Positions 24,772 through 32,310 of a stretch of DNA of 42,298 nt are shown piece after piece; position 1 is the stretch's first letter; the number at the start of each line of letters is the position of its first letter. The notes beneath the pieces are model-generated. The model saw nothing but the letters and a program-made list of their open reading frames with translations. It was not told the DNA's origin and made no database searches. Source of the stretch: Acidobacteriota bacterium (GTDB taxonomy: Bacteria > Acidobacteriota > Thermoanaerobaculia > Multivoradales > JAHZIX01); NCBI GenBank assembly GCA_020439725.1, contig JAGQSE010000170.1, positions 1 through 42,298 on the forward strand, given 5' to 3'. The translations under genes and the position numbers were made by a program.

Positions 24772-27700
24772 CTACGGACTGACGACCGTCCAAGCGTCTG
24801 TGGTTCCGGACTCAAAGCCGTCGCCGAAGAGTGGCAACGGGCACCGATCCGTGTTCAGAATGATGAGGTCGTCGACCCACCAGCCCTGTCCGCCGCCGAT
24901 CTCGTCGGAGACGAAATGCCAGCGAAGAAGGACGTCATGGCCAGCGAGGTCTCCAAGATCAACGCTGACCCGTTGCCAGCTGATGGCGGGGCCGGTCCAC
25001 GCGTCTCGTCCCGGAAGCGGGTTCGAACAGCAGGCAGACAGGATGGTGTTGTAGCCGTTCTCGATGAAGCGGCCCGGATTGGACGGAACGCTCGTTCCGT
25101 CCCCTTCGAGGATGTCGAACCAGGCTCCGCCCCCATCGACGGAGTACTCGAGAACACCTCCGGCCGCACCGGTGACGGTGTCCATACGCTGGTAGAACCT
25201 GAGGACCGCACTCGAGTCGGAAACCGGGAGTGCGTACCTGAGCCCCAGCATCTGATCCTTTACGGCTTCTTCGTCATTCACGAACCAGGAGCGCTGCCCT
25301 GAGTGGGCGTCCAAGGACGAAGTTGTCCAGCGGGAAGTGCCGCTATCCTGGGGTCCGGAGGTTGGGACCCAGCTGACTCTCGTGCGTTCGACATCGTCCG
25401 TACAGTTCGCCCCGAAAGAGGCCGAAACAGCATGAGAGGTCTCGATCGTGAGCGAGCATGGAGTCAGCCCCGAGCAGGCACCCGCCCAACCAGAGAACAC
25501 CGAGCCCACATCGGTCGAAGCGCTTAGCTCGACGACTGTACCCCGCGCAAAGACCTCGGAACAATCCGTCCCGCAACTGATACCAGGGGGATCACTGACG
25601 ACGACTCCGGTGCCGTCTCCGGTGGCTGTGACCGAGATCTCGGTGGGCCGGAACTCAGCGGCGACACTCATCGGTGCTTCGACCGTGACCAGGCAGTCTC
25701 CGGTGCCGCTACAGCCTCCTCCGGTCCAGCTTGCCAGATAGGAAGTGCTGTTCGGCGAGGCAGCGAGGATGACCGGAGTTCCGAACAGAAAGTCCGCGGA
25801 GCAAGTGCTGCCGCAATCGATTCCAGCCGGATCACTTTGCACCAGGCCATCGCCGGCCCCAGTCTTGGTCACATCGAGGCTCAGCTCGGCGATGCCGCAT
25901 TCGGCGTTGACTGCCGTAGCTCCGCCGATCGTGACTACGCAGGGCCCAGTCCCGGTACAGGCCCCGCTCCACGCCGTGAGGGCGCTATCCGGATCCGGGG
26001 TTGCAGTGAGAGTGACGCTCCTTCCGAAGAAGAAGTCACCAGCGCAGTCCGTGCCGCAGTCGATCCCCGCAGGGTCGCTAGTGATCCCACAACTTCCGTC
26101 TCCGGACTTGGTGACGGTCAGAGAGAACTGCTGAAGACCGAATTCTGCGGAGACAGCTCTCGCCGCGTCGATGGTGACCACGCAGGGTCCGGTGCCCGGG
26201 CAGGCGGGCTCGCTCCACCCGATCAACGTACTACCCGTCTGCGGAGTTGCAGTCAGGGTGACTGTGGTGTCGTAGAGGAAAGACTCGGAGCAGTCACTCC
26301 CGCAGTCGATCCCTGTGGGTGAGCTGGTGATCAGGCCGGCGCCGTCTCCGAGCTTTTCGACTAGCAGCGGGTAGGAAGCGATCCCAAAGGTCGCTGTGAT
26401 GGCGTGAGCTCCATCCATTGTGATCGAGCACAGGCCCGTCCCGCTACAACCGTCACCGCTCCAACCCAGGAAGGTGGAGCCTACGTCCGGCGTTGCGCTC
26501 AGAGTCAGCTGGCTTCCCACCGGATAGTCCTCACTGCAGTCGGAGCCACAGTAGATACCGTTGGGGGAAGCGATCACCGTGCCGCCACCGGTTCCATCCT
26601 TGGAGACCGAAAGCGGATAGAAGACCTGCGCGATCAGCACGGAGTGGTCTTCCACCTCTCCGTCCAGAGACAGCCCCTGAGGGGTGAGCCCACCAGCGGT
26701 ACTTAGCCGGAAGCGGGCGAAGGCCAATCCGGCAGGAGTGGCATCGCATGGGACGGCTACCGTGAGCTGGTTCGTTCCAGCGCTCAGAGGCTCGCTGACA
26801 AAGACCTGCTCAGTCGGCATCGCCCAGGCGCCATCGGTATCGAAGTCGATCCAGGCATCCAGGAGACCGGGGCCTGAGCTCGTCACTTCGACGGTTGCGT
26901 CTTGGCAGGGCACGAGCTCAGCCGGGAAGGTAACCCCGTCCTCGTCGTTGGCCGCTCCCAAGTCATCTCCGTCGCCAGCCAAGGTCGGCTGACCGTCGAG
27001 CTCGCCATCGATGCTAGCTCCGAGGTGCAGCGCGGCGTGGAGTCCGTGGCGAGCTCCGTCCTCTGCGAGGGAGGTCGGGAAGGACCAAGGCTGACCCAGG
27101 GCAGCATTGGGGGCATCCCCATAGTCCACGTCTCGCAGGGAAATGGTGCTCGAAGCAGAGTTGTTGTTGCCGTTCGGGTCCACGGAGTTCGTGGGAGCTG
27201 TGACGCTCGCCGTATTCACCACGCTTCCGTCGATGCCTTCCACGATGGTGGCTGTAACCAGGTAGGTGGCGGTTCCTCCGGCTAGCAAGCTAACCGAGGA
27301 GTCGAGCAGGTCACCAGCGCCGGTGCCGGCACAGCTTGAGCCCGCCGTTGCGCTACAGGCCCAGAGCACATCGCTCAGAGTCATCGGGAAGGCATCGGTC
27401 ACGGTGACCCCGCTTGAACAACTGGGTCCCTGGTTCGTCACTTCGAGCGTGAACTCGATTTCCTCCCCCGGAACTGCCAGAGAAGTACTGGCTGTTTGGC
27501 TCATCATCAGGTCAGCTTCCAAGCCCACTTCGACAGTGATCACCTCGGAGTCCGTAGCCTGGTCTGGGTCCTCGACGAGGATCTCGATGGGATAGCTCTG
27601 GAGCGCCTGAGCGCACTCAGGAGTCCATGAGAAGGCTCCCGTAGTGGGATTTATCGAAGCTCCAGCAGGGCTCCCCGAGCCGAGGCTGAAGGTGAGAGAG

Positions 27701-32310: not shown

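Follow-up and report, generated by a model that had tools for sequence, protein, structure and literature searches.

The question raised by this locus is what kind of protein is encoded by the giant open reading frame (ORF) at positions 24772–32310 (− strand) of a 42,298 nt contig (JAGQSE010000170.1, assembly GCA_020439725.1) from an Acidobacteriota bacterium, and whether this ORF is one genuine gene. A preliminary description of this whole stretch of DNA, hereafter called the window, had read this ORF as an oddly ordered chimera in which a phospholipase C (PLC)-like head is followed by an internal surface-layer homology (SLH) triplet and a long row of further modules. The giant protein of the window is designated here as P0001 and the public NCBI product of the same 42,298 nt contig as P0002; residue numbers are counted from the GTG start of P0001. 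The reading that we favour, with a probability of roughly 0.7, is that P0001 is a Sec-exported modular 'enzyme on a stalk', carried as cargo by a mobile island, whose PLC-like head is swapped among relatives and accompanied by a HEAT-repeat partner. The structural and evolutionary description is well supported, whereas the enzymology and polarity are what we infer from it. The protein thereby joins two known kinds, the SLH-linked modular exoenzymes and the zinc PLC superfamily, and two features stand out, namely the HEAT–PLC gene pair and a short C-terminal tag.

One gene with a start upstream of the public gene call

A single uninterrupted ORF of 2512 codons was found at 24772–32310 (−), encoding 2512 amino acids (aa) plus stop, in agreement with the preliminary description. 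Its GTG start (32310–32308) is preceded at a spacing of 6 nt by a strong Shine–Dalgarno sequence, GGAGGAG (32323–32317), and overlaps the stop of the upstream HEAT gene by 4 nt, and homologues align from aa ∼20 onwards. The N-terminus of P0001 reads as a typical Sec signal peptide, MRPRKLRNSNAATLLFASTVLLNASLSEA (aa 1–29; 32224–32310, −), and the family consensus shows 'A-H-E-D' immediately after the hydrophobic segment; signal-peptidase cleavage is predicted at ...SEA↓HEDTH.

P0002 comprises 2265 aa and begins at residue 248 of P0001 (window 31569), and so lacks the stretch 31569–32310 (−), in which the signal peptide and the entire metal-binding half of the PLC-like head are encoded. If this public call were right, translation would begin at aa 248 and the 247 upstream codons would be untranslated, a proposal that has the NCBI product itself in its favour. 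However, such a start would bisect a domain conserved over aa ∼30–385 in 109 representatives and would forgo the signal peptide and the strong Shine–Dalgarno sequence at the GTG, and a separate, independent ENA contig of 622 nt encodes aa 1–127 identically, so that we regard it as hardly credible. Because the start at 248 would cut a conserved domain and lose the signal peptide, we take the public gene call to be too short and, judging from these sequence features, the ORF to be one genuine gene with its true start at GTG 32310. The corrected gene call restores a predicted catalytic domain that had been hidden.

A predicted zinc phospholipase C-like head

An exhaustive search with the head (aa 30–390; 31141–32223, −) yielded a family of 109 cluster representatives, in which the domain is mostly N-terminal in proteins of 300–2400 aa. 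Two of these homologues, P0111 (29.0 bits) and P0112 (29.5 bits), pass the PF00882 cut-off (26.8 bits). A family profile built from 17 sequences matched, in an alignment spanning PLC His14 to His128, Listeria PlcB (E 4.9e-13), Bacillus cereus PC-PLC (2.6e-9) and clostridial alpha-toxin (1e-6) in the PDB. Likewise, the AlphaFold2 (AF2) model of the head, with a predicted local distance difference test score (pLDDT) of 68.7 and a predicted TM-score of 0.75, gave Zn-PLCs as all of its top 17 Foldseek matches, reaching a target-normalised TM-score of 0.55 and a probability of 1.0 against 1ah7. Based on the homologues above the PF00882 cut-off, the family profile and the predicted fold, assignment of the head to a divergent branch of the zinc PLC superfamily, as a predicted enzyme, is well supported.

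Ten residues are invariant in the head family (E71, D72, H89, H149, D153, H159, D163, H165, D182 and E184). H36, D72, H89, H149, D153 and H159, invariant or nearly so, align with the PLC ligands H14, D55, H69, H118, D122 and H128, and six of the nine PLC metal ligands thus have aligned equivalents. Three of them, H149, D153 and H159 (∼ H118, D122 and H128 of B. cereus PLC), lie in LGRALHLLQDMTSPAHV (aa 144–160; 31831–31881, −), the motif in which a PLC-like metal site had originally been recognized and which profile and fold now back. The Trp1 ligand of PLC has no equivalent; the predicted mature N-terminus is His30 (consensus 'A↓HEDxxTH'), which may serve as the new N-terminus of the mature head. 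PLC H142 and E146 fall beyond the profile alignment, and the candidates for them, H165 and E184, are invariant and located in the low-confidence part of the model.

With the Zn-PLCs (PF00882; B. cereus PC-PLC 1ah7, Listeria PlcB 8cqm and the N-domain of clostridial alpha-toxin), which are its best profile and fold matches, the head thus has in common an all-alpha core, conserved equivalents of six ligands and secretion behind a signal peptide. It differs from them in being below detection by the Pfam model, in its predicted mature start at His (HEDxxTH) instead of Trp1, in its fusion to a 2100 aa body and its pairing with a HEAT partner gene, and in an extra conserved extension of ∼200 aa. This extension follows the helical core, carries invariant WW, EN and YGDxxY...YGAGLL motifs and has no counterpart in solved PLCs.

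As PLC, S1/P1 nucleases and Het-C have a common fold and metal site (PMC3482391), the head could instead be an S1/P1-type nuclease, or a Het-C-like hydrolase, acting on extracellular nucleic acid rather than a phospholipase, and the nucleases S1, SmNuc1 and TBN1 do occur lower in the Foldseek list of the head. These appeared, however, only at E > 0.8 with probabilities ≤0.21, whereas the significant profile matches and the top 17 fold matches were all phospholipases C, and PF02265 was not matched by P0001 in Pfam scans. We therefore consider a nuclease head quite unlikely.

An exported HEAT-repeat partner

Translationally coupled to the giant gene is a gene for an exported, lipoprotein-like HEAT-repeat protein (32307–33404, −; Pfam HEAT_2). 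The pairing was checked at 21 full-length PLC-like loci of species-representative genomes. A HEAT homologue was located directly upstream of the PLC-like gene, on the same strand, at 12 of the 21 loci by phmmer (E 1e-20 to 3e-8) and at 15/21 after one profile iteration, with gene gaps mostly between −21 and +60 nt and one stray HEAT match elsewhere in the loci. The loci originate from Planctomycetota, Binatia, a deltaproteobacterium and others, and most of the HEAT partners bear a signal peptide or lipobox. Conservation of the gene pair (L004–L008, L011–L016, L018 and L020–L022) does not depend on the giant SLH body.

These data suggest that, as a partner, the HEAT lipoprotein belongs specifically to the family of PLC-like heads, the pairing not being universal. 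Since two loci encoding relatives with an S8 peptidase head share a different upstream gene, the upstream partner appears to go with the type of head. The genes upstream of these two S8-headed relatives (L083:842–1582 and L084:657–1529) were mutually homologous (25% identity, E 1.7e-8) and not HEAT-related. By analogy with polymorphic toxin systems, in which HEAT-repeat immunity proteins occur (PMC3482391), the HEAT protein may be an inhibitor or a chaperone of the head. The gene pair links a divergent Zn-PLC branch to a conserved HEAT partner across several phyla and thus provides an enzyme–inhibitor or enzyme–chaperone hypothesis.

Heads appear to be exchanged on a conserved body

P0004 (2382 aa) matches P0001 from the head through to the very last residue, and P0007 and P0005 match the head together with whatever body each of them contains. 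Five further relatives, P0125, P0127, P0128, P0129 and P0130, are colinear with P0001 at 39–46% identity from aa 517/518 onward, or from aa 391 in P0125, and all alignments run unbroken across the region (27.9–28.2 kb) at which the preliminary description had placed a junction. The heads of the relatives are of the S8 type (P0127, P0128 and P0130), M12 reprolysin-like (P0125), unknown (P0129) or PLC-like (P0004 and P0007). The homology boundary with relatives carrying other heads thus lies at aa 517–518 (window ∼30,757), and at aa 391 for P0125.

In a maximum likelihood tree of the shared body region, P0007 (PLC) paired with P0130 (S8) and P0125 (M12) with P0128 (S8), each with 100/100 support, and the PLC and S8 labels each required three changes. 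The dispersal of head types over the body tree at this level of support means that recombination has repeatedly placed different heads on the conserved body, and the point of exchange lies immediately before the SLH triplet. The domain order, which had been taken for an oddity, is kept by the relatives and is, as far as the alignments tell, the conserved architecture of a family rather than of one gene. Likewise, the proposal that the ORF was fused from segments of different origin holds in the sense of an evolutionary mosaic, but the junction had been set ∼2.7 kb too far downstream of the boundary at aa 517–518. These proteins define a giant envelope-protein family, borne by mobile islands of little-studied soil bacteria, with an exchanged head and a constant body.

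The sharp change of composition previously described at ∼28,000 was numerically real, and the profile was not flat: G+C content was 0.557 over 28100–32310 and 0.625 over 24772–28000. However, about half of this difference was due to G+C at the second codon position (0.48 versus 0.56) and thus reflects amino acid composition, and the change was gradual. The profile was non-monotonic, with values of 0.52–0.55 at 30.4–32.5 kb, 0.60–0.62 at 29.2–30.1 kb, 0.54–0.57 at 28.0–29.5 kb and 0.61–0.645 below 27.7 kb, and across the whole window G+C fluctuated between 0.53 and 0.67. The step in G+C at the third codon position (GC3) lies near 30,480 and not at 28,000, the best single change point being aa 611 (window ∼30,477; 0.555 before and 0.691 after), with a log-likelihood ratio of 18.5 as compared with a maximum of 7.7 in 200 permutations. 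GC3 was 0.52 in the HEAT gene, 0.55 in the head, 0.69 in the body and 0.60 in STK2.

GC3 likewise climbs from 5′ to 3′ along the genes of four relatives that were assembled independently, whatever the head type. The gradient is therefore a family trait and not an assembly artefact, and for the same reason it cannot by itself mark a recent fusion. In all five members of the giant family examined (L081–L084 and the window), GC3 rose by 0.12–0.19 from the 5′ to the 3′ part. A recent insertion of a HEAT-plus-head cassette would be compatible with the GC3 step, yet is not claimed here, as STK2 is low too and all relatives show the gradient.

If the ORF were an assembly chimera, unrelated sequences would have been joined at 27.9–28.2 kb or near 30.5 kb. 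GC and GC3 do shift along the ORF, and the contig belongs to a fragmented metagenome-assembled genome (MAG) with an N50 of 7.9 kb. Such a chimera is nevertheless extremely improbable, given that colinearity across both candidate junctions holds for seven relatives, drawn from assemblies of ENA, Logan, JGI and NCBI, and that the match with P0004 extends over head and body to the final residue. As four relatives from independent assemblies combine this colinearity with the same 5′-low/3′-high gradient, misassembly is very unlikely on sequence grounds.

The SLH triplet and its possible ligands

The internal SLH triplet of the preliminary description was confirmed at aa 519–735 (30106–30756, −), where an alignment with seven relatives (A3) displayed three F-x-D-V...W...G...P...TRAE units with the motifs TRAE, SRYE and NRAE in P0001. 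Pfam SLH scored 25.1 bits in the whole protein, which is over the cut-off, and 34.8 bits in two stretches when the region was isolated, and the profile of A3 matched the SLH domain of Bacillus anthracis Sap (3pyw) with an E-value of 2.3e-14. Between the head and the triplet lies a β module (aa 391–517; 30760–31140, −) that has neither a Pfam nor a PDB match and that, among the relatives compared, is shared only with the M12-headed P0125. This 127 aa module (NDNF...SLWWQYTP...FDTFLGVY...) recurs in the same place in P0125, with which the BLAST alignment begins at aa 391.

The Gram-positive SLH exoenzymes and S-layer proteins (e.g. Paenibacillus alvei SpaA, B. anthracis Sap and the Caldicellulosiruptor SLH glycosidases) resemble P0001 in combining a TRAE-type SLH pseudo-trimer with catalytic and Ig-like modules and in having a catalytic part that differs between relatives. 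They differ from it in that the triplet of P0001 is internal, right after the head, instead of terminal, in that its host is a diderm of an order nearly devoid of SLH proteins, in that its gene lies on a mobile island under extracytoplasmic function (ECF) sigma factor and kinase genes, and in that the protein ends in another C-terminal tag.

In Gram-positive bacteria, pyruvylated wall polymers are what SLH triplets attach their proteins to (PMC6081394), and the triplet of P0001 might accordingly fasten the protein to the wall of its own producer, leaving the head wall-adjacent and the C-terminal modules as a cell-distal adhesin. The TRAE and NRAE motifs are present and the MAG encodes two PS_pyruv_trans homologues, although this family is broad and matches Escherichia coli too. 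The MAG carries Omp85 proteins, however, and the host is therefore a diderm whose peptidoglycan is periplasmic, so that self-anchoring through SLH is doubtful, an extracellular triplet being unable to reach periplasmic peptidoglycan. Moreover, the giant protein was the sole SLH match in the MAG, and only five of 26 genomes of the order had SLH matches, one or two each. Surface proteins of diderms are typically held via their C-terminus, and P0001 ends in a tag shared by the secretome. Anchoring to the producer's own wall is thus rather doubtful, as is the earlier view that SLH marks the cell-proximal end. Alternatively, the triplet may bind pyruvylated polysaccharide on the outer surface, or it may target the walls of other cells, the C-terminal tag then being producer-proximal.

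A position-locked C-terminal tag

P0001 ends with PLFGDGFESGTTDAWTVVSP followed by the stop codon (24775–24834, −), a tag of 19 residues that fits exactly the canonical [IL]-F-x-D-G-F-E-S/T-G-D-T-S-x-W-S/T-x-V-V-P end, as do the tails of the relatives. The tail stops 10 residues after the Trp, is without a hydrophobic helix and has an AF2 pLDDT <50. Within the MAG, GFE[ST]G-x(3-6)-W occurred in 27 ORFs, and in 22 of these it lay 11–41 residues before the stop (11–24 in 21 of the 22). The tagged proteins are mutually unrelated, and inspection revealed a signal peptide in the majority of those whose N-terminus is complete; they include S8, M36, M28 and M43 peptidases, a lactonase-type propeller, and BNR, FG-GAP, DUF11, PKD and β-helix proteins. 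The 21 further tagged ORFs map to contigs C8, C12, C81, C116, C162, C289, C295, C331, C342, C413, C454, C468, C506, C516, C537, C660, C663, C726, C763, C812 and C866 (loci L085–L104), and secreted peptidases and further hydrolases make up most of them.

When the genomes of the order were searched with a 22-column model, the tag was detected in 21 of the 26, with up to at least 148 matches each, and in none of the other five. In 17 of 20 sampled matches the stop was located 14–16 residues after the Gly of GFESG, and the sampled consensus was [IL]-F-x-D-G-F-E-S-G-D-T-S-A-W-S/T-x-V-V-P-stop. By its distribution, the motif is thus a genome-wide and order-wide, position-locked C-terminal tag, and provides a clean example of such a short tag, carried by the secretome of an entire bacterial order. 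That it is a truncated domain remnant was rejected, as the distance to the stop is constant in dozens of unrelated proteins. Full-text literature searches for 'GFESG' or for the architecture returned nothing relevant.

The preliminary description had noticed the motif as a repeat between P0001 (24775–24828) and another giant protein of the window, A (11073–11114). Both strings are indeed at these positions, but no special link between the two proteins follows, the tag being genome- and order-wide. In giant protein A the motif, FSDGFESGDYFAWS (11073–11114, +), lies near the N-terminus, after a signal peptide and a Pro/Ser-rich linker; no more than five copies in the genome, this one included, are non-C-terminal. 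At C21:2290–3190 (+), a MAM-like paralogue is followed by LLFEDSFEGGDFSAW, where the motif runs on into a LamG-like domain and resembles its first strand.

Like the C-terminal sorting signals of diderms (PEP-CTERM/exosortase, GlyGly-CTERM/rhombosortase, MYXO-CTERM and the C-terminal domain of type IX secretion system [T9SS] substrates), the tag has a fixed position at the very C-terminus of numerous secreted proteins that belong to one lineage but are otherwise unrelated. It also sits where those signals sit in homologous M36 peptidases, the tagged M36 peptidase belonging to families that NCBI splits by T9SS, rhombosortase and myxosortase signals. Unlike them, it consists of only ∼19 residues without a hydrophobic helix or basic cluster, its motif is also met as the opening strand of a LamG-like domain, and no processing enzyme is known for it, although no search aimed at one was made. 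Should the tag act as a sorting signal, it would be of a hitherto undescribed kind.

The giant gene as cargo of a mobile island

The window encodes two relaxase-type proteins (a relaxase and Replic_Relax), two coupling proteins, a DNA methylase, RadC and a PIN/UPF0175 toxin–antitoxin pair. The giant gene is the last of an operon-like row consisting of an ECF sigma factor (39143–39733, −), two Ser/Thr-kinase-TPR proteins (36468–39056, − and 33406–36258, −; all three by Pfam) and the HEAT lipoprotein. A type IV coupling protein gene (23436–24695, +; T4SS-DNA_transf, E 6.8e-63) is convergent on its 3′ end and shares 70% identity with its positional counterpart in L082; in the interval between the two genes, terminator and sigma-70 promoter patterns were not found. 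The order of sigma factor, kinase, giant gene and convergent coupling protein gene recurs at L081 and L082, around P0129, which lies in a 5.2 Mb contig, and P0125, and the island backbone proteins around P0125 are 55–70% identical to those of the window. P0004 adjoins an integrase (L125), and P0128 adjoins phage-like genes (L083). Based on the relaxase and coupling protein genes and on the same gene order in related elements, we interpret the giant gene as conserved cargo of an Acidobacteriota-type mobile island family. The contig is the longest and has the lowest G+C content of the fragmented, 83%-complete MAG (60.5%, as compared with a mean of 68.6% and a standard deviation of 2.3% for contigs of at least 5 kb), which fits a mobile element.

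Aggregation substances of Gram-positive plasmids offer an analogue for another possible role, in which the giant protein would be a transfer accessory, that is, a mating-pair or aggregation adhesin whose head remodels the envelope of the recipient. Its constant position beside the coupling protein gene in three related elements and its many adhesin-type modules would agree with such a role. But the same body is also found in a phage-like context (L083) and beside an integrase only (L125), and the varying heads, proteases or PLC, together with a tag common to ordinary secreted hydrolases, better fit a degradative or antagonistic role, which makes a transfer accessory distinctly improbable.

A proposed mechanism and the polarity of the protein

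In the 'enzyme on a stalk' reading, P0001 would comprise, from its N-terminus, a signal peptide, a divergent tri-zinc phosphodiesterase head of the PLC superfamily, a small β module, the SLH triplet, a β-sandwich stalk of ∼1550 aa (Big_5, He_PIG, DUF11, GEVED and B-repeats), a MAM-like lectin-type domain and the 19-residue tag. The kinase and the ECF sigma factor would turn the operon on, the giant protein would pass the inner membrane via Sec, and the HEAT partner would hold or chaperone the head in the periplasm. The C-terminal tag would then send the protein along the export or retention route of the other tagged hydrolases. The SLH triplet would bind a pyruvylated glycan, and the head would hydrolyse phosphodiester bonds in the head groups of phospholipids or in polymers of the wall, its place of action being set by the SLH and lectin-type modules.

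Several points weigh against this reading. The head alone (first 400 aa) gave no Pfam, NCBIfam or PDB sequence match, and no PF00882 match even at E 10. Its assignment depends on the 17-sequence profile and on a model of medium confidence (pLDDT 68.7), and the equivalents of the PLC ligands W1, H142 and E146 are candidates at most. A HEAT partner was absent upstream of P0004 and P0007, the closest relatives having both a PLC-like head and the body, and at three Acidobacteriota loci (L001–L003). The tag has neither a membrane helix nor a known receptor. Finally, the assignment of the contig, the longest and lowest in G+C content of the MAG, to its host is presumptive, and the binning of this island calls for caution.

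A reversed polarity is unlikely. In that case, the helix-less tag would hold the stalk at the surface of the producer, with the N-terminus as a distal, exchangeable 'warhead'; the SLH triplet would target pyruvylated polymers of other, e.g. Gram-positive, bacteria, the head would attack their envelope, and the HEAT lipoprotein would be an inhibitor or immunity protein. If true, the giant protein would be an island-borne, kinase- and ECF-regulated, tethered antagonistic weapon that is N-terminally polymorphic, and the tag an undescribed sorting or retention signal. Polymorphic toxin systems, including those with Imm-HEAT (Zhang et al., 2012; PMC3482391), share with the present system a long conserved part for delivery or as a stalk, an enzymatic end exchanged by recombination and an adjacent small, exported, helical-repeat partner that co-varies with the enzyme domain. 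They differ in that here the variable domain is N-terminal rather than C-terminal and the partner lies upstream, and in that P0001 is without RHS, filamentous-haemagglutinin or type VI and type V secretion system trafficking parts; toxicity and immunity are putative in the present case.

Further domains of the body and minor observations

The Ig, DUF11, GEVED and B-repeat modules that had been described in the C-terminal part were substantiated by Pfam, Big_5, He_PIG, DUF11, GEVED and Flg_new_2 all scoring over their cut-offs. Downstream of the SLH triplet, a linker is followed by a weak PKD-like module (K319L-like_PKD, E 0.011) and an isolated B-repeat-like module that cross-matched the B-repeats in BLAST (together aa 760–1060; 29131–30033, −), and then by a Big_5 Ig-like domain (aa 1062–1163; 28822–29127, −; E 2.5e-17). 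The β-rich region at aa 1166–1504 (27799–28815, −), which spans the formerly proposed junction, yielded no family match and is colinear with all relatives in continuous alignments. Next come He_PIG/Big_9 (aa 1505–1595; E 5.3e-9) and DUF11 (aa 1600–1723; E 8.2e-18), together at 27142–27798 (−), GEVED (aa 1818–1891; 26638–26859, −; E 1.2e-11) and five tandem InlB-type B-repeats (aa 1897–2300; 25411–26622, −), four stretches of which were detected by Flg_new_2 (E 1.4e-25) and the fifth was read from the sequence.

A MAM/CBM-like jelly-roll domain (aa 2301–2490; 24841–25410, −) precedes the tag. Over its final 200 aa, P0001 matches the MAM-like portion of the M36 peptidase families NF038112 and NF038111; homologues pass the cut-off of Reelin_subrepeat-B, and the C12 paralogue passes that of InhA-like_MAM. 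An AF2 model of the C-terminal 223 aa had a usable MAM-like core and a low-confidence tail, and gave weak Foldseek matches to the MAM domains of InhA2, neuropilin and meprin. Elsewhere in the window, the RadC-like JAB protein (21422–22279, +) has an H-NS-type DNA-binding domain at its C-terminus (Pfam Histone_HNS, E 1.3e-9).

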